Positions 2,870-41,811 of a stretch of DNA of 64,000 nucleotides are shown here, piece after piece. The translations under genes were made by a program, and so were the position numbers. Under the pieces are notes generated by a model. The model ran no database searches. It saw nothing but the letters and a program-made list of their open reading frames with translations, and was not told the DNA's origin. Source of the DNA: Candidatus Latescibacterota bacterium. Its GTDB lineage: Bacteria > Latescibacterota > UBA2968 > GCA-2709665. The stretch lies in contig OZ241917.1 in the NCBI GenBank assembly GCA_965203805.1, forward strand, positions 4,160,001 through 4,224,000, read 5' to 3'. Positions within the stretch are counted from its first letter, which is position 1. Each line of letters starts with the position of its first letter.

Positions 2870-3170
2870 ACAAGAAAGCCGATGCGGTCGAGGCGCCCGC
2901 CAGTCTGCGTGCGTGCTACACCTGCCTGCGCCTGCCTGTCCCGTTGGAACGGCAGACAGGCCAAGCCCCGCGCGGCATGCAGGCGCACAGGCAGGCGCTC
3001 CCAGGGAAGACGGTCGCCATCAGGGCAGGGCCCTGTCCCCCAACCGGCGCGACGATCTGCCTGCCTGCGACGCACAGGCAGGTGCCGCAGTCGCATTTGT
3101 AAGGGCGACCGGCCGGTCGCCCCTACAGCAGAGATTCGTCACGCGGGCGGTTCGCGAACCGCCCCTACAA
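2870..3170. repeat. REP cluster with nested CCTG...CAGG mini-palindromes
   Basis: GTAAGGGCGACCGGCCGGTCGCCCCTAC (3099-3126) and GGGCGGTTCGCGAACCGCCCCTAC; paralogous to 8190-8330. Confidence 0.85.
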
Positions 3171-8350: not shown

Positions 8351-8377
8351 GCATCCTTGACGTCACGCATGTCATCA

Positions 8378-9103: not shown

Positions 9104-9199
9104 TAGTAACAACCTCCTATATGTGATTCGGGGATGCTGCGACCGCCATTTCTTCGCTGAATTATGTGTAGTCTTTCCGATGCCCCGATTGAAAAGCAG

Positions 9200-9300
9200 A
9201 CCACCGGCGCGGCGACCTGGCTTGCCCTGTATGCGCCCGTCTGTGCTGCAGGCACGCGCTGTCTTTGCATTGCACGGGCGGTTCGCGAACCGCCCCTTGC
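9200..9300. repeat. Degenerate REP cluster
   Basis: GGGCGGTTCGCGAACCGCCCC plus flanks similar to 3040-3170. Confidence 0.65.
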
Positions 9301-9450
9301 CGTTTCGTCAACGCGTTTGGATTTTCAAGGAACGCGTCAAAAAGGGATTGCTTGCGGCATCGTCGCGTTCTAACATAGTGTAGAGTGCATGGAAGTCGTC
9401 AAAACGGCCCGGGCTATTAACGGCGCCTTCAGCGCGAAAGAGGTGAGGTC

Positions 9451-10818
9451 GTGCGGAAAAATTGGATGGGCAACGTCGCAATCATCGTCCTGGCGCTGGT
9501 AAATGTCGCTCTGTGGGTTGCTTTCACGCCGGCCGATGATGGAACCCGGGAGGGGTACGGTCGTCGGCTATTCTCTGAGATTCTCAGTTCGACCGCGATG
9601 GTCCTGATGGCATCCGCCCTGTTCCTTTCGACCCGGCCGCGGTACCTTGAATCATTCTTCGGCGGCCTGGACAAGATGTATCACGCCCACAAGAACGCGG
9701 CGATGGCAGCCCTTCTGCTGGTCGTGGCCCACTTTCTGATCATGCCCCTGGGCGGCGATGATGATGAATTAGAAGAAGCCGCTGAATCTTTATCGCCCTT
9801 TGTGGAGTTCCTGGCCGATATCTTCGGCGCGTCGCCCGTCCTGGAAAGCCTGGGCGAGGTCCTGGGCCTGGTCGCCTTTGCCGGGCTTCTCGCGCTGGTC
9901 CTGCTGACCGTTGCGCCGAGATTGCCTCTGATCGGGTCATTTACCCGCTTCTCCTACAGCAGATGGCTCAAGACACACAAGTTCATAGGAATCTTCTTCA
10001 TCATCGGGTTTTTTCACTCATTGACGGTTGACGCCCTTGTTCTCGCCGAACCGGTTCTCCTCGTCTATTTGACCGCCGCCTCTATCGTGGGAGCGATCTG
10101 TTATCTGTACACGGAAATACTGGCCGTCTTTTTCAGGAAGAGGTTCTCGTTTGTCGTGGAAGCCGTCCGAAGACTGAACGGAACCACTATGGAAGTAGCG
10201 CTGAAACCGCTGGCGGAAAAGCCGCGCTTCACGGCGGGACAGTTCGCCTTTGTGAGTTTTCCAGGCGATAAGGCGATGAAAGAACCCCATCCTTTCACGG
10301 TATGCTCTTCTCCCAATGAAGAAAATATGCGTTTTGCGATTAAGGCTTCCGGCGATTGGACGCGGCAGCTGAACGCCCACCTGCAGTGCGGGGCTCGGGC
10401 GAGGGTGGACGGCTGCTACGGCAGATTCAACTATAAAACGGGCGGTCGGGAACAGATATGGATCGCCGGCGGCATTGGAATCACCCCCTTCATGAGTTGG
10501 ATCCGGGATTTCGAGGACGGGCCCGATGCCGACGTGGAGATGTTTTACACGGTTCGCGGTGAAGGGGATTTGCTGTTTTCGGATGAGATCGCATCGGCTG
10601 GCAGCCGATATGATCATTTCCGTCACCATATCAAGGTTTCATCTCAGGACGGCAACCTTACAGTCGAAGAGATCGCGTCCCGGTGCCAGGGCGAAATCAG
10701 GGACAGGCACGTTTATATGTGCGGGCCAATTGCCATGATGGATTCAATGGAACGCCAATTCAAGAAAATGCGCGTGCCCGCTGAAAATATCCACTACGAA
10801 GAATTCAACTTCCGTTAG
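9451..10818 (+). CDS. Ferric reductase-like transmembrane, FAD/NAD(P)-binding oxidoreductase
   Basis: TM helices with His pairs; HPFT, AGGIGITP, YMCGP and terminal EEFNFR motifs. Confidence 0.9.
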   Translation: MRKNWMGNVAIIVLALVNVALWVAFTPADDGTREGYGRRLFSEILSSTAMVLMASALFLSTRPRYLESFFGGLDKMYHAHKNAAMAALLLVVAHFLIMPLGGDDDELEEAAESLSPFVEFLADIFGASPVLESLGEVLGLVAFAGLLALVLLTVAPRLPLIGSFTRFSYSRWLKTHKFIGIFFIIGFFHSLTVDALVLAEPVLLVYLTAASIVGAICYLYTEILAVFFRKRFSFVVEAVRRLNGTTMEVALKPLAEKPRFTAGQFAFVSFPGDKAMKEPHPFTVCSSPNEENMRFAIKASGDWTRQLNAHLQCGARARVDGCYGRFNYKTGGREQIWIAGGIGITPFMSWIRDFEDGPDADVEMFYTVRGEGDLLFSDEIASAGSRYDHFRHHIKVSSQDGNLTVEEIASRCQGEIRDRHVYMCGPIAMMDSMERQFKKMRVPAENIHYEEFNFR

Positions 10819-10849
10819 AAGCTACTTGGCCCCATTCATTCATGAGACG

Positions 10850-11036
10850 GAACAAACATGGATGGACAGGATGAAAACCAAAAGCACGAGAAAACGAACA
10901 TCAGAAACTACGAAACACGCGAAAAAAACGAAAAATCCGTGGCTGAAATCAATTGCCACAAGAGGCCTGCCTGCATGCGACGCACAGGCAGGCGTCAAGG
11001 TTGCATTTGTAGGGGCGACCGGCCGGTCGCCCCTAC
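10850..11036. repeat. Intergenic repeat (ATGGATGGACAGGAT type) with mini-palindrome and GTAG REP
   Basis: About 110 bp similar to 17295-17420; perfect palindrome 11009-11036; short copies at 8331, 16415, 54946. Confidence 0.8.
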
Positions 11037-11123
11037 ATAAAGGCATGCATCCGCCCTCCGTATCCATTTTTTCGATTTCGCCGAGACTGGCTACGGTCGG
11101 CCGGTGTCCTTGACCAACTGAGA

Positions 11124-11423
11124 TTACCGATACCCATTCTGTCTTCCCCGTCGCAGCGCGCGTTTCTGGTCCGCGGGGAGTGAGGGATAGGCCGTGATGA
11201 CGCGTTCGTCTCGGATGACGACCTTGCGATTCTTAAGCCGTTCCAGCGTCTGAATCTCCCGTTTTCGGTTCGCGATCTCGCGCGCGACGTCCTGCCTTCG
11301 CATCAGCCACGTATCCCTGTCGACCGGTGTACCGAATTGCTGAATCAGCCGGATATCTCTTCCGCGAAAGCCCCGCTGCTGGGTGCGCGTCCGGCCGTGG
11401 CGGGTGTAGGCGATGGCGCTCAT
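11124..11423 (-). CDS. DUF4258-like small basic protein (putative toxin)
   Basis: YTRHGRTRTQQRG N-terminus and VITAY C-terminus; ATGA overlap with the upstream gene. Confidence 0.65.
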   Translation of the reverse strand: MSAIAYTRHGRTRTQQRGFRGRDIRLIQQFGTPVDRDTWLMRRQDVAREIANRKREIQTLERLKNRKVVIRDERVITAYPSLPADQKRALRRGRQNGYR

Positions 11424-12460
11424 TGTTCGTCTCCTTCGTTTTCGGTTTCGGGCTTGCTCATTCCAGGCTCATTCTCTTCTAACATCTTTTTTGTTTTCGA
11501 GCTTACCAGAACCGGGGCTAATTCCTTCAGGAAATCTGCCAATTCCTCCTCATTCATGCCGCTGAATTTCTCGGACATTCTGTCTTCAAGCCACTTCTGA
11601 CGCTCTTCGTGTTTGGCTTCCTCCATCAATTCCTCAGGTACCTCGGACAGCCGCAAGAATCCCATTTCCAGGGCCGCCCTGCCAACAGGGGACGCGTTGG
11701 TGATCCTGTCCAGTTCCTCGTCGCAGATACCGTAGTACGGGAACCTGAATTCCACCCGAAAGTCGAGTTCGCCATCGTCCACCGTAACGGACTCGGGAAT
11801 ATCGAGGTCGGCGGCCAATATGTGCAAATAATCTGCGAATGGGTTTTCTTCACTCAGATCGAAAAAGTTACGATCGACAAGTGTGCCATCCGGGTCGTCG
11901 AGCAGACGTTTGCCGAATAGATCGGCCCTGCGGATGGATTCTTCTTCTCGATCGACCCCATGGTACACGGCCTCGTGAAGGCCGGTATCCAGCCCCCCCC
12001 GCCAGTACCCGCCGATCTGTTCCAATTGCCGGATTGCCTCTCGCGCTTCTTTTAATTTCTCTCGCCGCCAGGCGAGGCTGCCCTCGGCCAGAAGGGTGAA
12101 CAACAGCGGCGCCATGGTGATTACATCGGTTGCGGTGACGCCGTATCGGCGTTTTATAAGGTCATAAGCGAGTCGGGCTTTGGGGGCGATCTGCGCGCCG
12201 ATACGGACCGGGTCCGGCTCGGTGTCCGGGACCCTATCGGCGTCCGGCATGTCCAACTCGCCTGTGAGCACACCCGGTTCGACGTCGAGTGCTTTGGCGA
12301 GACGGAGCACGGTGTCTTCTCGCGTCGTTTTGCATTTATCAGGTTCTTTTTCCAGGCGTTGAACTGTCCGCGCATTGATACCAGCCATATCTGCAAGCCG
12401 CTGGATTGACAAGGGTTTCGATTTACGCAATCTGCGCAAACATTCATGATCTATTTTCAT
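11420..12460 (-). CDS. XRE-family HTH protein with long acidic C-terminal domain
   Basis: LRRLRK...SIQRLADMAGINARTVQRLE; AAGGAG RBS. Confidence 0.85.
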   Translation of the reverse strand: MKIDHECLRRLRKSKPLSIQRLADMAGINARTVQRLEKEPDKCKTTREDTVLRLAKALDVEPGVLTGELDMPDADRVPDTEPDPVRIGAQIAPKARLAYDLIKRRYGVTATDVITMAPLLFTLLAEGSLAWRREKLKEAREAIRQLEQIGGYWRGGLDTGLHEAVYHGVDREEESIRRADLFGKRLLDDPDGTLVDRNFFDLSEENPFADYLHILAADLDIPESVTVDDGELDFRVEFRFPYYGICDEELDRITNASPVGRAALEMGFLRLSEVPEELMEEAKHEERQKWLEDRMSEKFSGMNEEELADFLKELAPVLVSSKTKKMLEENEPGMSKPETENEGDEQ

Positions 12461-12893
12461 TGGGAAGCTCCTTCGGTTGATTGTCGCGAAGCCCGATTCA
12501 ATTGACACAAATAAAATACCTTGAAAAAATACAAATTACAAGAGGGTATATATTGAAATAATCAAGAAAACTTAAATATTAAATAGGCTATATTTGATAA
12601 AATGTCGGGATTCACGTCCTGCGATCAGGATTCGGCATCCTGCCGAAACGATTTGGTGCAGACATACCCGGACATTTCGTTACCGTACGCAACGAACGGT
12701 ATTCCTCAATGAATGGCAAGCCGGCGACCGGTCGATGAACCGCTGTTTTTCTCTCCCTCTCCCCCGGGAGAGGTCCGCGCCCCGCTGCATGACTTTCTCG
12801 CCGGCGTGACGGCTTTTGTTTATCATGCGGTATATATCCCCGTGCAGGTCGTTTGTGAGCCGTCTCGCCACTCGCTGATTGAACGACAATCTT

Positions 12894-14864
12894 ATGCCTC
12901 GTGAAGGTCCCCCAAGAATTCGCAATCTCGGTATCCTCGCACACGTCGATGCCGGCAAGACGACCCTGACTGAGAATTTGCTGTTTCTCAGCGGCGCCAT
13001 CCGTTCTCCCGGAAATGTCGACAAAGGGACCAGCCTCTCCGATGCGCTCGACGTGGAAAGGCGGCGAGGGATCTCGGTCCGGGCATCGTCGATGTCATTC
13101 GAGTGGGAGGGCGTGAGGATCAACCTGATCGATACGCCGGGGCACGTCGATTTCTCCGCCGAAGTCGAACGGTCGCTTCGGGTGCTGGATTGCGCCGTGC
13201 TCGTTCTTTCCGCGGTCGAAGGCATCCAGGCCCAGACGGAGACTATATGGGCCGCGCTGGAAGCGCTGAACATACCTGTCATCCTGTTCGTGAACAAACT
13301 GGATCGGATCGGCGCGGATACGGCGAGGGTCGTCGATGATCTGAAGCGTCGTTTTTCACGCGACGTGATTCCGGTCAATCAGCCGGAGAAGGAAGGCGAA
13401 TCGGACGCTGGTATCGCCAGTCTGAACCCGGACGGTCAAACCGCCCTCACAGAGAGCGTCGCGGCGAAGGACGATGTGCTCCTGGAGCGATTCCTGAACG
13501 AAAAGCCGATTTCACGAGCAGAGATCGAGAAGGTGATTGCGGCTTGCACGGCAAAGAGAGAACTGTTTCCCATGCTCTGCGGCGTGGCAAAGAACATGAT
13601 CGGAACGGAGGAACTGCTGGGAAAGATCGTGGCCTGGTTCCCCGATGCGGATGCCGACGACTCACGTCCGCCTTCCGGTGTGGTGTTCAAGCTCGACCAC
13701 GATCCGAAACTTGGGCGCATCGCCGGCGTTCGCCTCTATGCAGGACGACTCCAAAACAGGGATATCATCCGGAACGTTACGGCGGATCGCGACGAGAAGA
13801 TTACGCAGATCAAGAAATCCTATCTCAATCGATACGAGGACACGAGTGCCCTCTCCGCCGGCGACATCGGTTTCTTGTGCGGGATGCCTGAGGCGAAGAT
13901 CGGCGACGTCCTGGGCGACCCGGGTTCCATCCCCGGGTCCTGCGAACTCGGAGAGCCCCTGCTGTCGGTTCAGGCAATCCCGGTAGACGAGGCGGATCAT
14001 TCCCGGCTGGCCGCGGCGCTGCAACAGTTGTCGAGCGAAGACCCTCGCCTCAACTACACGTGGTTCGAGGATGAACGCGAACTGCACGTGAGGATCATGG
14101 GCCCTGTTCAGGCGGAAATCCTGAAGGAAATGCTCGATGCGCGATTCGGCATCCAGGCGCGGTTCAATGACCCGATGGTCATTTACAAGGAGACGCCTGC
14201 TTCCGTTGGATACGGTATCGAGCGCTACACGATGCCGAAACCGTGTTGGGCCATCGTGAAGTATCGGATCGAACCGGGCGAGCCGGGAAGCGGTGTCGTT
14301 TATTCGTCACAGGTCGGCGTCAACGATATCAAGGCACGATTTCAGAAGGAGATCGAAAGATCGATCGAGGGCGCGCTCAGGCAGGGAATCAAGGGATGGG
14401 AAGTCACGGATCTGAAGATTACCCTGGTGGAGGGAAGCGATCACGTTCTGCACAGCCGCGCGGGCAATTTCAAACTGGCAACCAATATCGCGGTGCTGAA
14501 AGGGCTGACCGCGACCGGGTCGATTCTGCTCGAACCGATACTGTCGTTCAAAATCTCGGTGGCCGAGGCCTACGTTGGAAGAATCACGTCCGATATCATC
14601 AACGCGCGCGGCGCCTTCGATCCCATAGAGGCAGACGGAGGTGCGCTATCGGTTACGGGACGAGTACCCCTGGCGACTTCAATGGACTATCCCATCCGGC
14701 TGAACTCGTTGACTGGCGGAACGGCGAAATTCTCCTTCAAGTACGACGGATATGAGCCGTGCCCGCCGGGCGTGGGCGTCGTGCGGCCCTACAAGGGGAT
14801 ATCGCCGCTGGACCGGGCGAAGTACATCCTGAAGATGCGAGGGGCGGTAACGGAAGCCGTTTGA
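12894..14864 (+). CDS. TetM/TetO-like ribosomal-protection-family GTPase (EF-G paralog)
   Basis: AHVDAGKTT, RGIS, DTPGH and NKLD motifs; about 656 aa; RPP-like C-terminal tail. Confidence 0.85.
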   Translation: MPREGPPRIRNLGILAHVDAGKTTLTENLLFLSGAIRSPGNVDKGTSLSDALDVERRRGISVRASSMSFEWEGVRINLIDTPGHVDFSAEVERSLRVLDCAVLVLSAVEGIQAQTETIWAALEALNIPVILFVNKLDRIGADTARVVDDLKRRFSRDVIPVNQPEKEGESDAGIASLNPDGQTALTESVAAKDDVLLERFLNEKPISRAEIEKVIAACTAKRELFPMLCGVAKNMIGTEELLGKIVAWFPDADADDSRPPSGVVFKLDHDPKLGRIAGVRLYAGRLQNRDIIRNVTADRDEKITQIKKSYLNRYEDTSALSAGDIGFLCGMPEAKIGDVLGDPGSIPGSCELGEPLLSVQAIPVDEADHSRLAAALQQLSSEDPRLNYTWFEDERELHVRIMGPVQAEILKEMLDARFGIQARFNDPMVIYKETPASVGYGIERYTMPKPCWAIVKYRIEPGEPGSGVVYSSQVGVNDIKARFQKEIERSIEGALRQGIKGWEVTDLKITLVEGSDHVLHSRAGNFKLATNIAVLKGLTATGSILLEPILSFKISVAEAYVGRITSDIINARGAFDPIEADGGALSVTGRVPLATSMDYPIRLNSLTGGTAKFSFKYDGYEPCPPGVGVVRPYKGISPLDRAKYILKMRGAVTEAV

Positions 14865-15059
14865 AGCTATTGCCGGGTATCAGGGAGGCACGGGGCGTGA
14901 GGGACCAAGAAGCGGGGAGACGTGAGCCGGGAGCCGGGAGATGACGTCCTTGCCCAATTGGTTCTTCCTTTGAGCCACAGGCAAGAAATCAATCCGCACG
15001 GGGCAAGCGATCTCTCCCCTCTTCCGTCTTCAGTCTTTCCGCCTTTTGATGGTTGTGTT

Positions 15060-15142
15060 TCCCTTTGTGTCTTTGTGCCTTTGTGTGAGCTGGTTTTCGT
15101 TTTTCTGACCACTGACCACTGATCGCTGACCGCTAACAGCTG
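15060..15142. repeat. Short tandem repeats (CTTTGTGY octamers, CTGACCA/CTGATCG heptamers)
   Basis: Direct reading; related copies at 16160-16201 and 17579-17600. Confidence 0.7.
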
Positions 15143-15310
15143 TTAGCCGACTTTCCCCTCGCCAGAAACCCCTTGTTCCATCTGCCGGAATCAGATATAC
15201 TCCCGTTCGCCCTCGTGATACCCCAAACCCGCTGCGATGGGCGCGTTCCGTGACGGTAGAACGACCCGTCCCGGCGCCGCGCCGTCGCGGTGTTCTCTTT
15301 TGTACCGTGG

Positions 15311-16114
15311 ATGCAAAACTCACCCGTTATTACCGTTGAAAATGCGTGCAAGACCTTTGCCGGGGACCGAGGCGAGGTCCAGGCCCTGGACGGCTTCGAT
15401 ATGGCCGTGCGGGAAGGGCAGTTCGTCTCCATCGTCGGTCCCAGCGGCTGCGGCAAGAGCACCCTGCTCTGGGCCATGGCGGCGCTCTGGCCGCTTTCCG
15501 ACGGGAAGATTACCGTCAATGGGCGGGAGGTCCTGGAACCGCGGCGGGAAATCGGTATGGTCTTCCAGACCTCCAACCTGCTGCCGTGGCGCAATCTGCT
15601 GCAGAATATCCGGTTTCCGTTCGAGATTATGAGGGAAGATCCGGAACAATACCGGGACCGTATCGACGAGTTGATCGAAATCACCGCCCTGAAGGGTTTC
15701 GAGCGTCACTATCCGGGCGAACTCTCGGGCGGCATGCAGCAGCGGGCGTCCATCGTCCGGGCGCTGGCATACGACCCCGGGGTCCTGCTGATGGACGAGC
15801 CCTTCGGCGCCCTGGATGCCTTCACCCGGGACGAAATGAACCTGATGCTCCTCAACATCTGGGAGCAGTCCCGCAAAACCATCGTCTTCGTCACCCATCA
15901 GATTCCGGAAGCCGTCTACCTCTCGGACCGGGTCTACGTGATGACCCCGCGCCCGGGCCGGAACTCGAAAATCTACGACATCGACTTGCCCCGCCCGCGC
16001 CCGTTATCCGTTACCGCCGAACCCCATTTCTTTGAAATCGTCGCCGAAATCAAACAGACCATCTTCCACGACGTCCAGAACGACGCCGCGCCGGCGTTGA
16101 CGTTGCATTCGTAG
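15311..16114 (+). CDS. ABC transporter ATP-binding protein (NitT/TauT family)
   Basis: GPSGCGKS, LSGGMQQR, LLMDEPF. Confidence 0.95.
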   Translation: MQNSPVITVENACKTFAGDRGEVQALDGFDMAVREGQFVSIVGPSGCGKSTLLWAMAALWPLSDGKITVNGREVLEPRREIGMVFQTSNLLPWRNLLQNIRFPFEIMREDPEQYRDRIDELIEITALKGFERHYPGELSGGMQQRASIVRALAYDPGVLLMDEPFGALDAFTRDEMNLMLLNIWEQSRKTIVFVTHQIPEAVYLSDRVYVMTPRPGRNSKIYDIDLPRPRPLSVTAEPHFFEIVAEIKQTIFHDVQNDAAPALTLHS

Positions 16115-16223
16115 GGGCAACCCTTGTGGTTGCCCGTCTTTCGGTCGTTTCCGGTTTCCCTTTGCGTCTTCGTGTCTTTGTGTGAGTTGATCGCTGACAG
16201 CTTTCATTAATGGTTCGACCTAT

Positions 16224-16469
16224 GGTGAATTATTCACGAAAACCCATGGTTTTGGTGTATAACGGGTTGTTTTTCAATAAATTCAGCGAAGTATTATGCG
16301 ACAGCATTTCATGAATTACAAAATTGATTGGTCAGGGTGATGTTTCGTAGCCCACGGAGGCAAGGATCCATCGGTTTGGCCCGAAATCGTGAGCATTTGT
16401 CCTGCTCTTGGTCTTTATCCTGTTCATCCTGTCCATCCATGTAAGTTCATGTTTAGTGAATTATTCAGG
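16224..16469. mobile_element. IS1380-type MITE
   Basis: Ends GGTGAATTATTCACGAA / TTAGTGAATTATTCAGG resemble the IS1380 IRs; CTAT on both flanks. Confidence 0.55.
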
Positions 16470-16471
16470 CT

Positions 16472-17272
16472 ATGACCGATAATCGCGAAAAACAACCCAT
16501 CAACTGGTCCGCGCTGACTTCGATGCGTTTCGCCGGCGTACAGGTGGCCGTGATCGTGGGTGTGGCGGTGGCTGTCGTGGCGGCATCCGAACTCGTGGTC
16601 CGCGCGTGGGACATCCCGTCCTACGTCTTCCCGCTTCCCAGCGAGATCGCTACCGCCCTGTACCGGTCCTTTCCGCTACTCTGGCCGCACCTGCTCGTTA
16701 CGCTTCAGGAACTGGGCCTGGGATACGTTACCGGGGCGGTCGCGGGCATCCTCCTGGCTGCGCTGATCACCCAGTTTCCGTTCGTGGAAAAGATCGTCAC
16801 GCCGTATATCCTGATTCTGGTCACCACGCCCATGCTCGCCCTGGTGCCGCTGCTGATCCTCAAATTCGGCTTCGGCCAGACGCCCCGGGTCATCGCGGTG
16901 GCGCTCGCCGTCGGCCCAATGGTCATGATCAACGCCGCCACCGGCTTCCGCCGGACCGACCTGGCGAAGATCGCGCTGGCCCGCTCGTACGGCGCCTCGA
17001 CGCTCCAGATTTTCCGCAAGGTCCGCTTTCCGCTCGCGCTGCCGATGATCATTGTCGGCCTGATGGTCGGCGGCATCTTCGGCCTGCTGACCGCGATCGG
17101 CGCGGAGATGGTGGGCGGCGGGTCCGGCCTTGGCAATCGCCTGGTCTATTACTCCTCGCTCGCGCGCATGGCCAGCTTTTTCGCAGTGATCATTCTCATT
17201 GCCGCGATCGGGATCGGCCTGTACGTCGCCTTTTACCTGATCGGCAAGAAGTGGGCGAATTGGGAAAATTAG
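16472..17272 (+). CDS. ABC transporter permease (NitT/TauT family)
   Basis: Multiple TM helices; LARSYGAS...KVRFPLALP EAA loop. Confidence 0.93.
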   Translation: MTDNREKQPINWSALTSMRFAGVQVAVIVGVAVAVVAASELVVRAWDIPSYVFPLPSEIATALYRSFPLLWPHLLVTLQELGLGYVTGAVAGILLAALITQFPFVEKIVTPYILILVTTPMLALVPLLILKFGFGQTPRVIAVALAVGPMVMINAATGFRRTDLAKIALARSYGASTLQIFRKVRFPLALPMIIVGLMVGGIFGLLTAIGAEMVGGGSGLGNRLVYYSSLARMASFFAVIILIAAIGIGLYVAFYLIGKKWANWEN

Positions 17273-17294
17273 CCGATTGAAAGCGAAATCAGGA

Positions 17295-17472
17295 CAAACA
17301 TGGATGGACAGGATAGACAGGATGAAAACCAAAAAGCACGAGAAAACGAACATCAGAAACTACGAAATACACGAAAAAACGCGAAAAATAGGTGGCTGAA
17401 GTTCGTTACCACAAGGGGCCTGCCTGCAGCGCCTGTCTGCGTGCGTACACGCACAGGCAGGCAGGGCACTGC
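17295..17472. repeat. Intergenic repeat with doubly nested mini-palindrome
   Basis: Paralog of 10850-10995; nested element 17419-17471. Confidence 0.8.
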
Positions 17473-17663
17473 GCAGGCGGGCACAAAAACAGCTAATCTG
17501 TTACAGGGCGTATAGCCGATAGACAAGGAATACCCTGCAGGGTCACGGCGTTACGACACACGACGTTTGGCGTTTATACCTTTTGTGCTTTTTGTGGCTG
17601 AATTAGCGCTTATCTTTTTCGCATTGAGGTTAAGTATACCGTTACCATAAGGGAGGAAAGCAC

Positions 17664-18776
17664 ATGAGAAGAGACACCTTCACCCGCCGCGAATTTCTGG
17701 GATATTCATCGGCCCTGGGCGTCATGCTCTGTATCCCCGCGAACCCGCTGAATGCAGGGGAAGCCGACAGAATCGTGTGGGTTTCCCCGCGTGGAAACCT
17801 GGAGGTGATGGATGACTTCAACCTGTGGGTGGCCCACGAAATGGGTTATTTCAAGGAGCTGAACCTGGACGTGGTGCTGCAGCCCGGTCCCACGGAAGCA
17901 TTGGCGGTAACCAAACTGGTGGGCCAGAAGCAGGCTGACATGGGTTTCCCGTCTCCCGGCGTTCTGCTATCCAGCATCGACGCGGGGATCCCGGTCGTCC
18001 TCGTGTGGGAGATGGTCATGAAACAGGTCTTCGACTTCGCCCTGCCCGAAGACAGTCCCATCACGAAGGTCCAGGACCTGGCAGGGAAGAAAATCGCCGT
18101 CGCTTCCGAAGGCTGGCGCTTGATCATCGATCCCATCCTGGTTGAAGCGGGGCTCGATCCCAAGTCGGTGACCTATCTGCCTGGCGGCCCGCAATGGGGC
18201 CAGATGGTCGCCCTGGGGCGGGCCGACGCGGGGCTTGCATGGCGAGGCCTAGCGGCCCAGTGGAAGGCCCTGGGAATGAAGCTCAAATTCCTTGTGGGGA
18301 TGGAGTTCTCCAATCATCCTTCCAACGGCTACGCCATCCACCGCGACGATCTGAAAGACGAGACCCGCGTGGGTATCTGGACGCGCTTCTTCAAGGCCAA
18401 CTGTCTGGCGTACGAGTTTACGCGGGCCAACCCCCGTGCGGCCGGTCAGATCACCTACGGCCGGTTTCCGGCGCTGCGGGAACAGATGGCGCCGCAGCTT
18501 GCGCTGGACTCGATGCTCGAGTTGGGCACCATCTACTTCGACGGCGACCGTATCGGGAAAGGGTACGGATACAGCGATATGGCGTCCTGGCAGGCCTACA
18601 TCGACACCGTCCACAAACTCGGGCAGATCGAGAATCACTACAAGGCCGAGGACGTTGTCAGCAACGCCTTCGTCAAGGAAGCCAACAACATTGACCGCGT
18701 CCGCGCCCGCGCGGAAGGGAAGGCGTTCGAACTGAGCGATGACTTCAAGGATCTGAAGGTCAATTATCCGGTTTAA
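17664..18776 (+). CDS. ABC substrate-binding protein (NMT1/THI5-like) with Tat signal
   Basis: TRREFL twin-arginine signal; GYFKELNLDV and DLAGKKIAV. Confidence 0.92.
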   Translation: MRRDTFTRREFLGYSSALGVMLCIPANPLNAGEADRIVWVSPRGNLEVMDDFNLWVAHEMGYFKELNLDVVLQPGPTEALAVTKLVGQKQADMGFPSPGVLLSSIDAGIPVVLVWEMVMKQVFDFALPEDSPITKVQDLAGKKIAVASEGWRLIIDPILVEAGLDPKSVTYLPGGPQWGQMVALGRADAGLAWRGLAAQWKALGMKLKFLVGMEFSNHPSNGYAIHRDDLKDETRVGIWTRFFKANCLAYEFTRANPRAAGQITYGRFPALREQMAPQLALDSMLELGTIYFDGDRIGKGYGYSDMASWQAYIDTVHKLGQIENHYKAEDVVSNAFVKEANNIDRVRARAEGKAFELSDDFKDLKVNYPV

Positions 18777-18934
18777 GGAGGAACGTCGCGGACATACTTC
18801 CGCTTGTCGGTCCTGCTATGGATTCTCTATAGCGTTCCGGCAGGTCGCCTGCCAGCGGACAAACACCTTTTGGAACTAACCTCCGGTAGAACAAGATTTT
18901 AACCTCTCTCACAAACTCTTTTTTTATCTTCGTC

Positions 18935-19490
18935 CTTTTTCTTGTACGCCCAAGAAAAAGGACCAAAAAGAACGGCGCCTGCCTGCCGAGCAGGCTTCGG
19001 CGCAGGCAGGCCGCTCGGCGCGGGGCCGGTTTTTCCGTGAACCACCTCAGTGGTAACAACGGAAATATGCACCCCTGTCACCGGACCAGCCCTGTCGGAT
19101 CTATGTTGCTGGACGGATTTGCACGGAAAAACCCCCCACACCGCCACCGTTCGCCTGACTGGACTGTACGATATTCAATGCATTTTCTGTCTTAACGATT
19201 AAGCGCTTGCGAACCTCTCGCGCTGTCCTCATCATTCAGACGCAAATCGCTTTACGAAGGGATGTCATGACTAGAGGACTACCAGAGCAGAGCGCGCTGA
19301 CCCGTCCAGCGACATGGTTCTATGTGCCACCGAGGGTGTCAGGGCAGAGGATTCTGTGCATCCTCTGAGGGTATTCGCGCTATGCATATGGCAGGCCCCG
19401 CCTGCCTGCCGCGCGGGGCTTGGCGCAGGCAGGCGCCCAGCGGCGACTTTTGGTTCCTTTTGGTCGCTTCAAAAGGAACCCGCCGGAGGC
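18935..19490. repeat. Long MITE-like intergenic element with palindromic ends, carrying two mini-palindrome inserts
   Basis: TTTTTCTTGTACGCCCAAGAAAAAGGACCAAAAAG versus CTTTTGGTTCCTTTTGGTCGCTTCAAAAGG; inserts at 18978-19010 and 19401-19433. Confidence 0.5.
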
Positions 19491-19639
19491 AGGGAATTTG
19501 GGGAAAAGGGGATTTTGACTTTGATTTTCGCTTTTGATTCAAGTTGACGGCTGACGACTGATAGCCTCTCGTTCACGGGAAACCAATTCGTATACGCTCG
19601 AAATGCCTCTTGAGAGGACTTTCACAGGAGACAATGGCG

Positions 19640-20821
19640 ATGGCTGACGAAGGCAGCGCGATCTACCCGGGTATCAGGATCACGGGCGTGGACACGTTCC
19701 TGGTGAAAGGGAACTGCTGTTTCGTTAAGATCAGGACGAACGAAGGGATCACGGGGTTGGGCGAGGGCTCGATCAGCGACAATAAGGTGGGCACCATCGC
19801 GCAATGCATCAAAGACCTCGAGGGACACCTCGTTGGCAAGAACCCCACGGACATCGAGCATCTCTGGCAGGGGCTCTTCCGCTGGAACCGCTGGCACGTG
19901 GGCGTGCTCTTCACCACCGCCCTCAGCGCCATCGACATCGCACTGTGGGATATCCTGGGAAAGATCGCGGGCCTGCCGATCTACAAGCTCCTGGGAGGCG
20001 CCGCGCGGGACAAGGTCCGCATCTACGCCGGCGGCGGGGGGAAGGCGGGCGTGCAGCGCGCCAGAGCCATGGGATGCAACGCCGTCAAGACGGGACCGCC
20101 GGTGACCAGAGCCGGCGACCCGCTCACGGTGCCCATGCCCTGGGACCTGAAACGGGCGGTCCGTCAGATCGAGGAGATGCGGATCGAAGGGGGCGATGAC
20201 TTCGACATCCTCATCGACGCCCACGGTCGTCTGACGCCGACGATGGCGCTTGAGTACTGCAGGGCGGTGGAACCCTACCGCCCCTTCTGGGTGGAGGAAC
20301 CGATCCAGGTGGAAGGATCGAACGACGCGCTCGAGTGGCTGAGCGATCGCACGACGGCGCCGCTGTGCATGGGCGAGCGAAACTTCACGAAATGGGGCTT
20401 CCAGGACATCATCGCGAAGCGCCTGGTGAGCTACCTCAATCCGGACATCGTCCACTGCGGCGGCATCTCGGAGTTCAAGAAGATCGCGGCCATGGCGGAG
20501 GCGCAGTACATCCAGGTCTCACCCCACATCACCTACAGCAGGGTCGGAGTCACCGCCGAGATCCACATGGGCCTGAACTGCCCCAACAGCGTGATACAGG
20601 AGATGGCTTCCTACGCGGACGATCCCACCAGGGAGAAGACCGACTGGCGGGATGATCTGTTCTACGGGCACCGGTACCAGATCGAGGACGGCTTCGTGAC
20701 GTTGCCGGACACGCCCGGTCTGGGGCTCGAGCTGAACGAAGAGGTGGCCCGGGCGCACCCCTATGAACCGGTACTCAGGGAGGAACTCAGGTACGAGGAC
20801 GGATCGGTGGAGGACAACTGA
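19640..20821 (+). CDS. Mandelate racemase/muconate lactonizing family enzyme (galactonate dehydratase-like)
   Basis: SAIDIALWDILGK, DAHG, WVEEP, GER, PGLG. Confidence 0.92.
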   Translation: MADEGSAIYPGIRITGVDTFLVKGNCCFVKIRTNEGITGLGEGSISDNKVGTIAQCIKDLEGHLVGKNPTDIEHLWQGLFRWNRWHVGVLFTTALSAIDIALWDILGKIAGLPIYKLLGGAARDKVRIYAGGGGKAGVQRARAMGCNAVKTGPPVTRAGDPLTVPMPWDLKRAVRQIEEMRIEGGDDFDILIDAHGRLTPTMALEYCRAVEPYRPFWVEEPIQVEGSNDALEWLSDRTTAPLCMGERNFTKWGFQDIIAKRLVSYLNPDIVHCGGISEFKKIAAMAEAQYIQVSPHITYSRVGVTAEIHMGLNCPNSVIQEMASYADDPTREKTDWRDDLFYGHRYQIEDGFVTLPDTPGLGLELNEEVARAHPYEPVLREELRYEDGSVEDN

Positions 20822-20883
20822 AGCGCGGGAAGTCCAAGGACGCTCTGTCCGGCTGAAGGGCCAGGCCCCCCGCCTGGCGCCAA

Positions 20884-23031
20884 TCATGTATTCATCACGA
20901 CCGCCGCGTGGCTGGCCGGGCCGCAAACCCCCGCGCTGTTGCGCGCCTTGAGCCGCAGTTGGTTCAGGCCCTCGTGCAGTTTCCACTCCAGGCAGGGGTC
21001 AGTTTGTTCGCGCCATTCGGCGCTGTCGATCTGCACCAGAAATGCGTCAAAGCACGGCGTCTCGGTATCCACGTCCACGCGCAGGACATCCGGCTCGGCG
21101 GTTTCGCTCAAGTAGAGTTCCGTCCGGTTGAGCGGGGGACTGAAATCCTGCCAGCGCCTGGTGTGCTGGTGGTATTCGCGTTTGCGGGGGAACACGTCGC
21201 GGTAGAAGCAATAGAAGAGATCGCTTCCCCAGTTGCTGGAGAGTCGCCACGGCAGCGGCCATGGACGGCTGGCAAAGTCGTTGCGCAGCACCATCTGCAA
21301 GTGTCCCTTGAGCATCAGGTGCTCCGGCCCTCCGCTCAGGTCGTCAATCGAAAAGGCATTGTCGCCCTGGCGATAGGCAACGCGCGCGGCACGGAGCATT
21401 TCGAGGTCCGGCAGGCGCCATTGGATGGGATATTCCCAGGTCGCCGGTCCCGGCATGATCTCCGCCAGACGCTCGCTGACTTCCACCAGATTCAGGGGAA
21501 TGCCCGTGTCCGGATCGTAAATATAGTAATCGCGCGTCGCATCCAGGAATATCCACTTGTCGAACTCGTTTGACCACACTTCGGCCACTTCGTGTCCGTA
21601 CGTGTGTTTGGTGGAGATATTGACCCAGCGGGCCGGAAAGCCCATGGCCAAACAGGCGGCGATCAGGGTCAGATTGCAGTAGAGACAATGGCCGTCGCGC
21701 CGGCGTTTCCCGTTGTCGCCAGGCTGGCCGGGCCGTCCATTCTCATCCCTATCGAGTCGAGGTAAATCGTAGTAATTCCATTCGTAGGCATCCAGGCGGT
21801 CGATCGGTACTTTGTAGGCCCAGTGCATGAGTTGCAGCTGGGCCTCGAATTCAGTTGCCGCGCCTGAAACCATCGCGTCAAGTTCAAAGCGGCGGCGCAG
21901 TTCGTTCAAGCGGGCGAAATCTTCGTGGACGTAGGGCAGGGACGGGCGAATGACGCGCCCGTTGCGGAGTTGGAGAAGGCGATAACATCCATTGGAGCGG
22001 TGCTCGTGCTCGCGCCGTTGCGCCGCCACGGAAATCCCCTTGAATACCGGCGTCACCAGCGGATTGCGGGCGTACATGACCATCCTGAACTGCAGGTAAC
22101 GTCCAACGGGAGCGGGCCACGTCCTGGCGAAATTCGATACGGATTCGAAAGGGGTCCATGAGGCCGCTTCGGGCACCGGATTATCGCCCAGTCGCGCCTC
22201 TATTTCCACCAGGCTTCCCTCGGGCGCATCCACCTCCCATCCTACCCGGCACGCATCTATATCGAGCAATTTCGCGATTCCCTTTGTGTCCCCTCCTGTC
22301 GCCAGATCGATCACCGGCGAGACAAAGGTTCCCCGCGGTACGCTGCGGTCCAGACTGAGGCGGATGGCGTACTCCCCGTCGATTTCATCTCTCCAGCCCA
22401 GGTGCTCGAAATCCCAGGTGCGGCCTCCGTCCCGGCTCTTGGCGCTGCGGTCAGGGTGGCAGAGCCGCGTTTCAGAGCCTCGCTTGTATTCTCCATCGGC
22501 GGCCACCATGATTTCCCAGCTGGTCTCCTCCGATTCGGACCACAGGACGAACTCATTGGTACCCTGCCTCAGTGCGCCCACGGGCACTGCAACCACGAAC
22601 CAGTTGTCGAAGTGCGAGCCTCCCCAGTCGGTGGTGTAGTAGTGGCGGGCAGTCGGGTGGGCGATCTTGCTCGGAGGTCGGATCAACTGGTGACCATTGA
22701 TGGAGACGTGGAGCGCATGGTCATTGTCGTCCATTTCCCGTCCGTTGAAGACTAGCCAGGCGGCTGTGGCACGAGGATCATCCAGGACCAGATCTTTTCG
22801 CGCCATCACTCCTTTATGCAATTTCTCAAACCACGACCGGTCCTCGGCGCCTTCGGGCCGGCCGATGGCCGGCGCATCGTCTTCGACCAGGAGCATATCA
22901 TTGAGGACGATCGCCTTTCTCAGCTGGCAGTATTGGAGTTGATCGAACTGACCCCGTACTTCCAGCGCAGCGGCATCCAGCGAAAAACGGCAATTACTCT
23001 TTAACGACATTTCTGAACACTCCCCGGTCAT
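20884..23031 (-). CDS. Large transglutaminase-like domain protein
   Basis: GHCLYCN...HEVAEVW...WIFLD Cys-His-Asp triad; ATGA overlap with the dipeptidase. Confidence 0.8.
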   Translation of the reverse strand: MTGECSEMSLKSNCRFSLDAAALEVRGQFDQLQYCQLRKAIVLNDMLLVEDDAPAIGRPEGAEDRSWFEKLHKGVMARKDLVLDDPRATAAWLVFNGREMDDNDHALHVSINGHQLIRPPSKIAHPTARHYYTTDWGGSHFDNWFVVAVPVGALRQGTNEFVLWSESEETSWEIMVAADGEYKRGSETRLCHPDRSAKSRDGGRTWDFEHLGWRDEIDGEYAIRLSLDRSVPRGTFVSPVIDLATGGDTKGIAKLLDIDACRVGWEVDAPEGSLVEIEARLGDNPVPEAASWTPFESVSNFARTWPAPVGRYLQFRMVMYARNPLVTPVFKGISVAAQRREHEHRSNGCYRLLQLRNGRVIRPSLPYVHEDFARLNELRRRFELDAMVSGAATEFEAQLQLMHWAYKVPIDRLDAYEWNYYDLPRLDRDENGRPGQPGDNGKRRRDGHCLYCNLTLIAACLAMGFPARWVNISTKHTYGHEVAEVWSNEFDKWIFLDATRDYYIYDPDTGIPLNLVEVSERLAEIMPGPATWEYPIQWRLPDLEMLRAARVAYRQGDNAFSIDDLSGGPEHLMLKGHLQMVLRNDFASRPWPLPWRLSSNWGSDLFYCFYRDVFPRKREYHQHTRRWQDFSPPLNRTELYLSETAEPDVLRVDVDTETPCFDAFLVQIDSAEWREQTDPCLEWKLHEGLNQLRLKARNSAGVCGPASHAAVVMNT

Positions 23032-24235: not shown

Positions 24236-24537
24236 AGGTAGAGGATAACGTTACCAAAGTGTTTTCACGCTGACCGTGCCTGTTTCTCTACGGCCCCCGT
24301 CCTCTCCAAGCCTCCCCGTCCTTCCTCCCTACGGTCGGAAGTCCGGGTCCCAGGCTTGTCGAGTCCGACCCCCTTGTGTCCTATATCACTCTAGTAGTAC
24401 CGTACAGAGTGGTTTCTAGGGGTGATGGGGGGACTGACCTACAAAATTAGTTTCACTTAAGTCTGGAGTGATATAGTGCAGTCCCATGCACTATATCATT
24501 CCCAGCCTATGTTTATTTATAAAACGATAGTATTTAG

Positions 24538-26260
24538 CCCCAATTATTCACAAAAAAGGTAGTTTCCTTACCCAAGTCATTGTATTATATTATGGTTAGG
24601 CGAATAACCATAACACAATGAAACAGGAGGAAACTACCGTGGAAGGTCAAGATAGTCAACTCACAGTTCCGTTCGCAAGTGTTTCTGGCAAGCAGGTGGA
24701 AGCCGTCTTCGACGGCGGTGTGCTCACCAGCCTGCCTGCTGCAGGCAGGCGATATCGGGTCGATGTTGCTTCGAGAGGTGGAGTCCAGGATCGGCATTTT
24801 GTCTCGGATCGTCGAGGCGTTACCGGACCGTCGGCATCCCAGTTATGTGGATCACACGATGTCGGATCTGATCAGCCAGCGTGTGTTTCAGATCGCGTGC
24901 GCGTATGAAGATGCGAACGATTGCGATTTGCTGCGCTTTGACCCCGCGTTCAAGGCGGCCTGTGGTCGGTTGCCGATATCAGGGACGCCGTTGGCCAGCC
25001 AACCCACGATGAGTCGTTTGGAAAACGGCATTCGTCGCCGGGACTTATATCGTATTGCCGAGGCCTTGGTGGACGGGTTTATCGCGTCCTACAAGCGGCC
25101 TCCCAACGCGGTCGTTCTGGATATCGATGACACCGACGACGAGGTTTACGGCTGTCAACAGTTGGCGATGTTCAATGGCTATTATGGTGAACGCTGTTAC
25201 TGTCCCTTGCATATCTATGAAGGGCAGACAGGAAGACTGATCACGACGCTTTTGCGTCCGGGCGCCCGTCCTACCGGCAAACAGATTGTCACCGTTCTCA
25301 AGCGACTGGTGAAACGCCTTCGCGAGGCGTGGCCGCACGTGCGACTCTTTTTGCGTGGCGACGGCCATTTTTCCTGTCCCGAGGTCCACGACTTTTGCGA
25401 CGTGCAAGAGGTGTATTTCGTGCTGGGACAGACGGGCAATGCCAGGCTTGCACAACGGGGACACGCGCTGATCGAGCAGGCAAAGGCACAGTATCGGGAG
25501 ACCGGACAGCCTGTGCAGCGATTTACCAGTTTCGCTTACCAGGCAGATTCCTGGGCCGTGCCAAGACGCATCATCTACAAAGCTGAAATCACCGCTTCCG
25601 GACAAGCCAATACACGCTTTGTCGTCACCAACCTGAAGAGTAGCCAACCCTCATTCCTCTACAAAACCGTCTATTGTGCGCGCGGCCTGTCTGCCGGCCA
25701 GGCAGGCAGGATGGAAAACTTCATCAAGAATCACAAAACCTTCCTCCATTCCGATCGTACCTCCTGCCACACCTTCGAAGCCAATCACTTCCGTCTCTTA
25801 CTGCATAGTGCCGCTTATGTCCTGATGCACACCCTTACCGAAAAAGGACTCTGGACCACCCAATGGACGCACGCGCAGTTTAATACCATTCAGAATCGCA
25901 TCCTCAAAGTCGCCGGGAGAGTGTCCGAACTCAAAACCAAAATCAAACTCCATTTGCCAACCTCATTTCCCTTGAAACACCTCTATGGCACCATCCTATG
26001 CAATTTGGCAAAGGCAGTTCCATAACGCAGACGCTTCACGCAGGCAAAGCCGTCCCTTTCTCATCGCCAAAAGTAAGACCAAGGCATCCGTCTGTCCTTT
26101 CCATCCACAAATCAAAGAACTCGACACCCCTCGATGCTGACAGACCACCCAAAATTACGCATTATCCCGTCACCAACACGTCATTTGACTATTTCCCCTT
26201 CTATAGATCACTTTTTGCTTCCAAAAACACTGTTCCGTTCAGTTTCATGAATTAGTCAGG
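24538..26260 (+). mobile_element. IS1380-family insertion sequence
   Basis: IRs CCCCAATTATTCACAAA / TTCATGAATTAGTCAGG; TTAG target duplication (24534-24537, 26261-26264). Confidence 0.92.
24618..26025 (+). pseudogene. IS1380 DDE transposase frameshifted by a 19-bp palindrome insertion
   Basis: FDGGVLTS|DIG, YEDAND, SQPTMSRLEN, LDIDDT, LRGDG and RMENFIK motifs; frame restored by removing 24731-24749. Confidence 0.9.
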
Positions 26261-26309
26261 TTAGTACGAGCAAGCGGATATCTATTAGCGTACGGGTACA
26301 AGGAGGGGA

Positions 26310-30475: not shown

Positions 30476-30596
30476 CCCTCACCCCCCGGCCTGCCTGCGC
30501 CTGCCTGTCCCATTGGAACGGCAGACAGGCCGAGACCTGCTCGGCAGGCAGGCCCCCTCTCCCAAGGGGAGAGGGGGAGACGTAAGACGGGAGAAA
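30476..30596. repeat. CCCTCTCCC...GGGAGAGGG REP-like repeat with doubly nested mini-palindrome
   Basis: Nested element 30490-30552 interrupts CCCTCACCCCCCGG|CCCCCTCTCCC. Confidence 0.8.
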
Positions 30597-41105: not shown

Positions 41106-41811
41106 TACCTGGGCGTGTCCACAACGCATCGTCTGCAAGTCGGAAGTGACACCGCAAGGTGTCAATATCCGATTCGTGGTCACCAACCTGAAACACGCCC
41201 AAGCGTCATTCATCTACAAAACCGCCTATTGCACACGCGGGAGGATGGAAAACTTCATCAAGAATCACAAGACCTTTCTCCATTCCGATCGCACCTCTTG
41301 TCACACGTTCCAGGCCAATCACTTCCGTCTCTTTCTCCACAGCGCCGCCTATGTCCTGATGCATTCCCTGGCTGCTATCGGATTGCGCGGCACAAGTTGG
41401 ACGAACGCACAGTTCAATACCCTGCAGAATCGACTCTTGATAGTCGCCGGGCGCGTTTGTAAGTTGAAAACCAGGATCAAGTTCCATCTCCCGACGGCGT
41501 TCCCACTCAAACACCTTTATGGTAAGATCCTCTATAATCTGGCAACAGGTGTTACATAACCCATCGACGCGCTGACCCCGCCTTCAAATTTGCATCGACA
41601 CGACCCAGTGCCATGGAGACGTCTGCGCTTTTGACAGCGGGATGCATGGCAACTTGACGCCACAGGTCAATCGTGCTGCCAGCAGGCATCGCCCAAACGG
41701 CTTGAACAAGCAAAATCCGTCACAGTCCGTGCGCTTTCGTTGCTCGTTTCGACCGGAATCTCGTTCTGCCTCCTTAAAATCCATCATCTGACGATTCATG
41801 AATAAATCGGG
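41106..41811 (+). mobile_element. IS1380 right-end remnant (transposase C-terminus and IR)
   Basis: RFVVTNL, RGRMENFIKNHK; IR TTCATGAATAAATCGGG followed by CTAG. Confidence 0.9.

Follow-up and report, generated by a model that had tools for sequence, protein, structure and literature searches.

Two very short palindromes interrupt the transposase gene of an IS1380-family insertion sequence in a bacterium of the Latescibacterota. They raise the question of whether DNA segments of about 20 bp can be mobile elements in their own right and, if so, what moves them. The insertion sequence (24538..26260, forward strand) lies in the window, that is, the whole 64,000-nucleotide stretch analysed, which corresponds to G000:C1:4160001-4224000 of a genome (G000) consisting of one contig (5.87 Mb, 59% G+C). 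An initial annotation, made from the letters of the window alone, had taken the two segments for members of a family of mini-palindromes that insert into genes without target duplication. It was shown that discrete, non-coding palindromes of 19–45 bp do insert precisely in this genome, without duplication or loss of target DNA, and that the bond between a G and a C is the preferred insertion point. A GIY-YIG nuclease gene situated between the arms of one such palindrome, outside the window, probably moves them, to judge by its sequence context.

Inserts within IS1380 copies

The ends of the insertion sequence were set by an alignment of all nine copies in G000, which also provided the comparison of empty sites; its transposase matched Pfam PF13701, and a 4-bp duplication, TTAG, surrounds it (24534-24537, 26261-26264). 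Both inserts were found where the initial annotation had placed them. The 19-bp palindrome CCTGCCTGCTGCAGGCAGG (24731..24749; palindromes are given without strand) was inserted at CCAG^CGAT, a site filled in two of the nine copies, recombined in one and empty in six. As had been claimed, it frameshifts the N-terminus of the transposase, leaving open reading frames (ORFs) at 24618..24908 and 24679..26025. The 21-bp palindrome CCTGTCTGCCGGCCAGGCAGG (25686..25706) was inserted at GCGCGG^CAGGATGG, which was filled in four copies and empty in five. It adds LSAGQAG in frame, again as described, between R-G and R-M-E of YCARG^RMENFIKNHK, which we take to be the Y-(2)-R-(3)-E-(6)-K catalytic signature. 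One further copy, c433, carried a 33-bp insert at TATGTG^GATCAC (filled in one of nine copies) and another 21-bp insert at AGTCG^CCGGG (filled in one, empty in eight). These are four independent inserts (19, 33, 21 and 21 bp), and every junction was exact when compared with the empty sites of sister copies.

The initial annotation had relied for its empty site on a second IS1380 copy near position 41237. This locus does read CTRGRMEN, with nothing inserted between 41240 and 41241, the site homologous to that of the 21-bp insert, but the copy proved to be a diverged 3' fragment of an IS1380-like transposase gene (41146..41559, forward strand, 73% amino acid identity) and better empty sites exist.

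The 21-bp insert that splits the putative Y-R-E-K signature was common to four IS1380 copies at different loci (the window copy, c433, c4028 and c1368). Once the insert had arisen these four spread, presumably being moved in trans by the four identical, uninterrupted copies (91% identical). In c1368 (G000:C1:1368671-1369876) approximately 100 bp between the first two sites were gone and one hybrid palindrome was left, which shows that inserted copies recombine. Likewise, 87 bp were deleted and a single hybrid palindrome kept among IS630-like copies (1663562 and 2176237, compared with 4564458). Two inserted copies can therefore recombine later, deleting the DNA between them.

Size, structure and junctions of the family

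The search pattern proposed in the initial annotation, CC[TC]G[CT]CT-N(3-45)-AG[GA]C[AG]GG, was run against the genome and produced 271 matches; three control patterns with rearranged letters produced 43, 101 and 63. In total, G000 contained 275 palindromic units in 239 composites, occupying 149 distinct insertion sites, these being the sites left once similar flanks had been collapsed. Nested units were resolved by stepwise removal of the innermost unit, which yielded 240 units, then 30 in a second layer and five in a third. Most outer units recovered a standard 33-bp sequence once the inner unit had been excised and, since they regain standard length in this way, nesting is precise and up to three layers deep. 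Every nested insertion was situated 10–13 nt inward from an end of its host unit, slightly past the arm.

The common ends and variable cores noted in the initial annotation are general. Units end in CCTGYCTG(C)...(G)CAGRCAGG, with terminal arms of 8–9 bp, and range from 19 to 45 bp in length (mostly 27–37 bp, with 33, 31, 30 and 27 bp being commonest); 16 subfamilies with at least three members share the arms and differ in their cores. The inserts are discrete, carry no gene of their own and fall far below the size of miniature inverted-repeat transposable elements (MITEs), as had been thought. When folded as DNA, units had z-scores of -1.5 to -3.7. One identical 33-mer was present at 13 distinct sites.

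In 108 of 239 cases the two flanks of a composite, when joined, matched contiguous sequence elsewhere in G000 without a gap, and so nothing was duplicated or lost at insertion; the absence of target duplication had been correctly read from the window. At 25 of 149 sites the position of the boundary was immovable and target duplication is therefore impossible there. The junction was G^C at 82 sites (55%), whereas the frequency of the GC dinucleotide is 8.5% (binomial P = 8e-48), and T at position +2 was almost excluded (2 of 149 sites). Microhomology at the junctions showed no excess (2.79, against 2.74 at control GC positions). At 101 of 149 sites the unit length in base pairs was divisible by three, these sites not being independent observations in this respect because length is a trait of the subfamily; the 282-bp element described below has such a length too. 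Lengths of this kind are consistent with life inside reading frames.

Empty sites folded no better than local controls (mean -16.7 versus -15.7 kcal/mol, P = 0.12), and a subset fell within the loops of other hairpins or at their 3' foot. No significant bias towards one replication strand was seen (30 versus 19 sites). Orphan end motifs were at background level in the genome: there were 355 and 349 of them, and permuted octamers gave a median of 368. Of the genes that recur in the intervals between adjacent palindromes, none had the look of a mobiliser.

A GIY-YIG element within hsdM

The initial annotation saw no mobiliser in the window, and this is correct; a candidate was located about 1.24 Mb away through a Pfam search of the genome. 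There were two GIY-YIG matches in G000, one of them uvrC-like by eye. The other, at 5397883-5398083, was also the only tblastn match in G000 to small GIY-YIG proteins of related genomes. It belongs to a 282-bp element (G000:C1:5397827-5398108) of 94 codons that is read in frame within the type I methylase gene hsdM, such that the host frame (HsdM, 623 aa) includes HsdM_N, N6_Mtase and, at residues 497-562, GIY-YIG (Pfam 53 bits). The element reads GACGA/CCTGCCTGCGCCGAGT...GGGCTCGGCAGGCAGG/CGGCGAACCC, where slashes mark its borders, beginning with CCTGCCTGCGCCGAGT and ending with GCTCGGCAGGCAGG. Its arms are those of the 33-bp subfamily CCTGCCTGCGCCGAGTTCTGCTCGGCAGGCAGG (CCTGCCTGCGCCGAGT..CTCGGCAGGCAGG), the loop being replaced by a 93-codon reading frame for a small GIY-YIG nuclease; the 33-mer and the 282-bp element share their first 16 nt and agree at 13 of the last 14. 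Both junctions are blunt, like those of the mini-palindromes.

Orthologous alleles were found with and without the element. In G016, a genome of another genus, the same element occupies the same hsdM codon (84% identical), while the orthologs in G012, G001, G011, G006, G009 and G035 are empty and read GACGA^TGGTGAACC; hsdM of G012 is 97% identical to that of G000 up to the insertion site. Among the eight aligned orthologs, therefore, two were filled and six empty, with identical junctions. A test for linkage with nuclease families, which the initial annotation had proposed, was thus positive for GIY-YIG, given that the gene lies between palindrome arms in both G000 and G016.

Four homologs of the nuclease, 74–80% identical, were found in metagenome-assembled genomes of Chloroflexota and Kiritimatiellia and in metagenomes. 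The right-arm peptide GRARQAGG, followed by PFE(E/D)KM from the C-terminus of hsdM, was present in all four and in a partial fifth (P0006); the hsdM C-terminus after GRARQAGG in the homologs reads (I/E)PFEEKM. The left-arm peptide LPAPRPG was seen in one homolog (P0002), the others being cut at their N-termini. By hand count, the identity of one homolog with G000 was about 54% over the hsdM tail, compared with 75% over the nuclease; this higher identity of the nuclease hints at movement between alleles.

The inserts are thus miniature palindromic mobile elements, and we consider it fairly probable that the 282-bp GIY-YIG element is the parent and the mini-palindromes its internally deleted, trans-dependent derivatives, with the nuclease cutting the hairpin formed by the arms. 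The mini-palindromes would have been derived from the 282-bp element by internal deletion, as MITEs are from insertion sequences. The nuclease would recognise the arm hairpin, or a cruciform, and cut at its base, where the flanking G and C, which are able to pair at most sites, would lengthen the stem by a single base pair. In this way the two cuts would come to lie opposite one another; such cutting could release or admit the element, and rejoining of G to C would restore the donor.

Several observations weigh against this. The nuclease was present in just two of 41 related genomes (G000 and G016), and searches of the palindrome-rich genomes G001, G015 and G011 did not detect it. The insertion point of the 282-bp element is A^T rather than G^C. 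Among 120 listed metagenome contigs with a 20-mer of the family, a small GIY-YIG-like ORF within 700 bp was seen in two, by a crude pattern match, and the other small GIY-YIG genes of relatives were without flanking palindromes of this family. The nearest solved relatives of the nuclease are the UPF0213 proteins 1ZG2 (E = 5.5e-10) and 1YWL. We know of no GIY-YIG enzyme that joins DNA, which leaves the insertion step without a known catalyst. It is also conceivable that the nuclease gene inserted into a palindrome as a passenger and is not what drives it.

In another account no dedicated enzyme is involved: host repair would capture excised hairpins or short duplexes at breaks, or template switching in the course of replication would copy them, and the GIY-YIG gene would be unrelated cargo. 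Blunt, duplication-free junctions are compatible with capture by end-joining, and the absence of a detected nuclease from several palindrome-rich relatives also speaks for it. However, uniform, exact ends at 149 sites with a strong preference for G^C are not expected from random capture, nor was there any microhomology past G^C. Moreover, the nuclease gene is bounded by the same arms in two genera, and arm peptides recur in homologs from other phyla. Such an origin is considered improbable, and movement by the GIY-YIG nuclease is preferred to it.

Another candidate nuclease domain was observed in hsdM of G016 (locus L346, G016:C1:2296105-2299383), where an in-frame segment resembles, by eye, a DUF559 (Vsr-like) endonuclease. 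On either side of this segment are peptides encoded by CCCCTCTCC/GGAGAGGGG hairpins, and a further mini-palindrome is present in the gene. A similar reading frame of 126 aa, with the same type of hairpin on both sides, was seen at G000:C1:3336058-3336744. This suggests that the DUF559-like segment and the CCCCTCTCC/GGAGAGGGG hairpins are another nuclease-hairpin pair.

RAYT genes

The initial annotation had suggested spread by an HUH/RAYT-like enzyme, in which case the palindromes would resemble repetitive extragenic palindromes (REPs) moved by a RAYT (HUH Y1) transposase via single-stranded hairpin intermediates. HUH enzymes (IS200/IS605, TnpA-REP) do give duplication-free insertion and have hairpin ends, and G000 contained two Y1_Tnp matches (RAYT1 and RAYT2). 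In addition, RAYT1 or RAYT3, a type found in relatives, was present in 10 of 11 genomes of the family with at least seven palindromes and in none of 10 with two or fewer, although these genomes are not independent.

The surroundings of the RAYT genes argue otherwise, since their flanks were without family palindromes in orthologous loci. RAYT1 is an ORF of 201 aa, and five orthologous loci had no CCTGCCTG palindrome within 1.5 kb; one CCTGCCTG unit was near the G000 copy only, on the downstream side. In the four loci tested (G000, G001, G008 and G016), RAYT1 was flanked on both sides by another REP, the hairpin CGAGGGCA-TCC(C)-TGCCCTCG. RAYT2 is a Y1_Tnp domain in a 1252-aa DUF1156 methylase frame (G000:C1:4546926-4550681, locus L025 3927-7682), and the same fusion was found in G008, G011 (two copies) and G016. 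A 27-bp unit (encoding PACALHADR) was present in RAYT2 of G000 solely; the four methylase gene copies of relatives (G008, two in G011, and G016) retain the orthologous empty site and read GARA^SRPH. By this comparison, the palindrome in G000 RAYT2 is a late in-frame insert. At four RAYT3 loci there was no family unit within 2.5 kb, and GTAG-tagged REPs flanked the gene. The units themselves were almost devoid of such tags (at most 10 of 275): GTAG occurred within 6 nt of an end in one of 275, and CGTC in nine or 10 of 275, depending on orientation. They also formed no fixed doublets, only 21 of 238 gaps between palindromes being shorter than 200 bp. The RAYT mechanism is accordingly given little weight, and a GIY-YIG-linked one is put in its place.

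The RAYT2 fusion provides a second example of a DNA methylase gene that houses a nuclease or transposase domain. The RAYT3 proteins, of a type not present in G000, were 250–291 aa in length (loci L065-L068, from G015, G001, G012 and G003) and their REPs were GTAGCGCAAACTGTTCGTTTGCGC.

Distribution across genomes, viruses and metagenomes

For counts across genomes, the strict pattern CCTGCCTGC-N(1-30)-GCAGGCAGG was applied, with the reversed pattern as a control. Within the family, 15 of 21 other genomes contained it, with copy numbers from 0 to 173, as did two of 19 from the sister family; there were 173 palindromes in G001, 121 in G015, 110 in G016 and 71 in G011. In 150 further genomes of the phylum, 15 of 18 from the same family were positive, as were nine of 132 from outside it; one of these nine had eight copies and each of the others one or two. 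The reversed pattern had zero matches in every genome of both samples. The G000 assembly derives from sponge or marine metagenomes, and sponge, coral and marine metagenome runs from nine studies contained DNA near-identical to it.

Outside the phylum, at least 120 viral contigs matched the strict pattern. Of the 85 viral matches listed (in 80 loci), 24 were 20-mers and 23 of these were the perfect palindrome CCTGCCTGCCGGCAGGCAGG; this 20-mer, which encodes LPAGRQ, was present in at least 120 metagenome contigs and in three copies in G000. No relative of the nuclease was found in the viral contigs. At one viral-contig locus (L184, about 2239-2330) the 20-mer was within a 92-nt tRNA-Met call, an apparent insertion into a tRNA gene. 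In G000, no palindrome was found within 700 bp of tRNA-Leu(CAA).

Location of units within the genome

The majority of units were intergenic, often within larger multicopy repeats. Coding hosts were chiefly transposase genes (PF13701 twice, PF01609, PF13358, PF05598 and a Mu-like family), while the other genes affected encode a TPR protein, an ImuB-like protein, a TolC-like protein and the DUF1156 methylase. The view that these inserts break genes of other mobile elements and add PAC..QAG-type peptides was borne out.

Long repeats make up 2.4% of the genome, yet contained 19 of 149 sites and 46 of 239 composites. It might be argued from this that the small units are themselves immobile, and that their number reflects the spread of larger repeats and insertion sequences together with gene conversion. 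The 31-bp subfamily agrees with such an origin, as 37 of its 40 copies have the same immediate flanks and 34 of 40 belong to one clustered site; so do the composites within long repeats, and the intergenic mosaics that are absent from relatives. Nonetheless, 149 distinct sites survive the collapse of similar flanks, nothing but the palindrome has entered where unrelated genes are interrupted, and empty copies of the host repeat are available for 108 of 239 composites. As a full explanation, spread of larger repeats is contradicted, and immobility of the units is very improbable; such spread holds for part of the copy number.

The shortest units were concentrated in transposases. All five distinct sites of 19-mers were in transposase reading frames, as were nine of the 15 sites at which the unit measures at most 21 bp (two of the nine being assigned by inspection). 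Several inserts were situated 0–4 codons from what are presumably catalytic residues: R-G^R-M-E in IS1380 and R-A-R-V^E in IS5-like genes and, similarly, W^LNQIE in IS630-like genes and RMD^S in the DUF772 type, all of which we assume to belong to catalytic signatures. These patterns, viewed against the small share of the genome held by long repeats, would agree with a host function, by which the palindromes are retained either for silencing insertion sequences or for limiting incoming single-stranded DNA. The latter has been proposed for the NTS repeats of Ssn nucleases, a system reported to modulate transformation (PMC11893778). Much of the pattern is nevertheless accounted for by the tolerance of dispensable genes to insertion, and most units are housed in intergenic repeats. 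A host function is considered unlikely.

Two diverged IS630-type transposase genes (G000:C1:4551729 and 1663562) had a 19-mer at an equivalent point, before GCTCAAC (W^LN.IE), which suggests either a site preference or repeated hits. The region of G000:C1 at about 3.24–3.47 Mb was the densest in arm motifs (90 and 50 matches per 100 kb). Composites of about 75 nt, comprising a CCCTYTCC hairpin, a 31-bp palindrome and GGGGAGAGGTCTGCG, are placed here between many small genes, and reverse their orientation near 3.33 Mb. An integron was considered for this region and rejected, the search having turned up no integron integrase (best match 93 bits, against a cut-off of 265). A transglutaminase-like gene in G008 was also rejected as a host; its 33-bp unit is upstream of the true start and not a clean insertion.

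Units within the window

The family members listed in the initial annotation were all present, the window containing 11 strict-pattern units in nine composites, plus two degenerate outer shells. Nine composites compare with 2.6 predicted from the genome average (Poisson P = 0.0015). The most complex, at 2900..2995, has three layers: an inner 30-bp unit (2931-2960), a middle layer (2921-2930 and 2961-2983) and a degenerate outer layer (2900-2920 and 2984-2995), as resolved by stepwise removal. It is followed by a 23-bp unit at 3060..3082, identified by pattern match and sequence, and a 27-bp unit at 10966..10992 (DNA fold -9.4 kcal/mol, z = -3.7), both intergenic. Two composites have two layers. 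In the first (17419..17481), a 30-bp unit (17432-17461) was inserted at CAGCG^CAGGG of a 33-bp unit, the right end of which has decayed to CAGGCGGG, and 24 empty sites of the host unit were found; in the second (30490..30552), a 30-bp unit (30500-30529) was inserted at CCTGCCTGCG^CCGAG of a 33-bp unit, with 22 empty sites. The remaining two, both of 33 bp, lie in different larger intergenic repeats. That at 18978..19010 has three empty paralogous sites and belongs to the subfamily whose arms also bound the GIY-YIG gene, and that at 19401..19433 has 13 empty paralogous sites. An Rfam search of the window matched no family.

Logan contigs from four runs in four studies were compared with positions 2500-22400 of the window. 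In every run there was one contig that lacks precisely the 33 bp at 18976-19010, and one X15 contig lacks 19399-19433; in both cases the flank matches are only 21–30 letters long and the host repeat has empty paralogs, and these contigs do not demonstrate allelic polymorphism at the two loci. The intergenic regions 17273-17630 and 18780-19625 are mosaics of multicopy repeats (units of roughly 95, 154, 235 and 340 bp) that were missing or much shorter at the same junctions in G001 and G002. The first two genes of the searched stretch abut in G001, compared with a gap of 358 bp in G000, and in G002 a spacer of 10 bp separates the second gene from the third, compared with about 845 bp in G000.

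Discussion

The palindromes resemble several known kinds of element without coinciding with any of them. Like MITEs, they are non-coding, keep the terminal inverted repeats of a putative parent and would depend on it in trans; unlike MITEs, they are 5–10 times smaller, create no target duplication and would have a nuclease, not a transposase, as their parent's enzyme. Free-standing GIY-YIG homing endonuclease genes are known from the Seg proteins of phage T4 and I-TevI types. The hsdM element shares with these a selfish GIY-YIG gene at one conserved site, with filled and empty alleles, but there is no intron or intein, the gene is translated within its host protein and the palindrome also occurs as hundreds of gene-less copies. 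Homing cannot account for 149 unrelated sites of gene-less units. Work by Elhai et al. in 2008 reportedly described cyanobacterial SDRs, mobile hairpin-like repeats of 21–27 nt situated inside other repeats and lacking a mobiliser. The SDRs of heterocystous cyanobacteria have other sequences and belong to another phylum, and in the present case there is a candidate protein-coding parent.

REPs, together with BIMEs and REPINs, are likewise imperfect palindromes of 20–40 bp with high copy number and a mostly extragenic location (Bertels and Rainey 2011, PMC3116915; Di Nocera et al. 2013, PMC3733652), and REPs in frame within genes and within other palindromes are already on record (PMC3733652). 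The present units differ from REP/REPIN-RAYT systems in having no GTAG/CGTC tag, flanked RAYT or fixed doublets, and in their paired, symmetric ends.

The closest parallel may be drawn with Ssn, where small GIY-YIG nucleases (CDD family cd10448) bind their own hairpin repeats and cut adjacent single-stranded DNA (Chenal et al. 2025, PMC11893778). In that work, NTS/SRM repeats flank the Ssn gene and are enriched in symbionts, and its authors liken them to insertion sequences. Both systems combine a small, single-domain GIY-YIG nuclease with a hairpin repeat of 20–50 nt in hundreds of copies. In the Ssn case, as presented there, the gene is placed between two repeats, whereas the nuclease described here is inside the loop of one palindrome and read in frame within hsdM. 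The SRM pattern (HGTCWY...) is oriented, with a GTC head; by inspection, the present units are symmetric and without one. Mobility of the repeat is documented here by empty sites and nesting, evidence of a kind that is absent from the relevant parts of the Ssn paper (PMC11893778).

A full-text search of the literature for the 19-mer, the 20-mer, LPAGRQ and PACRQAG returned no paper, supplementary lists, which may hold related motifs, being outside the search. Nothing relevant was found on palindromes in Latescibacteria or on nested, duplication-free hairpin insertions. A wider claim may be entertained, though we hold it doubtful: that these palindromes, at 19–33 bp, are the smallest mobile DNA known, extending across phyla and driven by a GIY-YIG nuclease from within a palindrome loop, in frame in restriction-modification genes. 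Movement would then consist of a cut at the hairpin foot and blunt rejoining, unlike any described transposition pathway, and the shortest forms may preferentially hit the catalytic motifs of transposases.

Conclusions

The observation that prompted this analysis is confirmed. The interpretation first placed on it is partly supported, with its mechanism replaced by a GIY-YIG-linked one, and to it are added the diversity of the 33-bp subfamilies, precise rules for the junctions, the nesting of units, recombination of inserted copies with one another and a putative parent element in hsdM, for which both filled and empty orthologs exist. That DNA elements as small as 19–33 bp move is cleanly proven at the level of sequence, by empty sites, by nesting and by the filled and empty alleles of orthologs. 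For 'orphan' hairpin repeats, a concrete candidate enzyme and a testable parent, hitherto missing, are now available, and the pairing of GIY-YIG nuclease with hairpin repeat is extended towards true mobility; such a pair could serve as a sequence-specific tool for single-stranded DNA. The odd in-frame peptides (PACRQAG, LPAGRQ) and frameshifts that appear in the annotation of metagenome-assembled genomes are accounted for. For the selfish nuclease gene itself, the finding describes a new lifestyle, in frame, within a palindrome, within a methylase gene.

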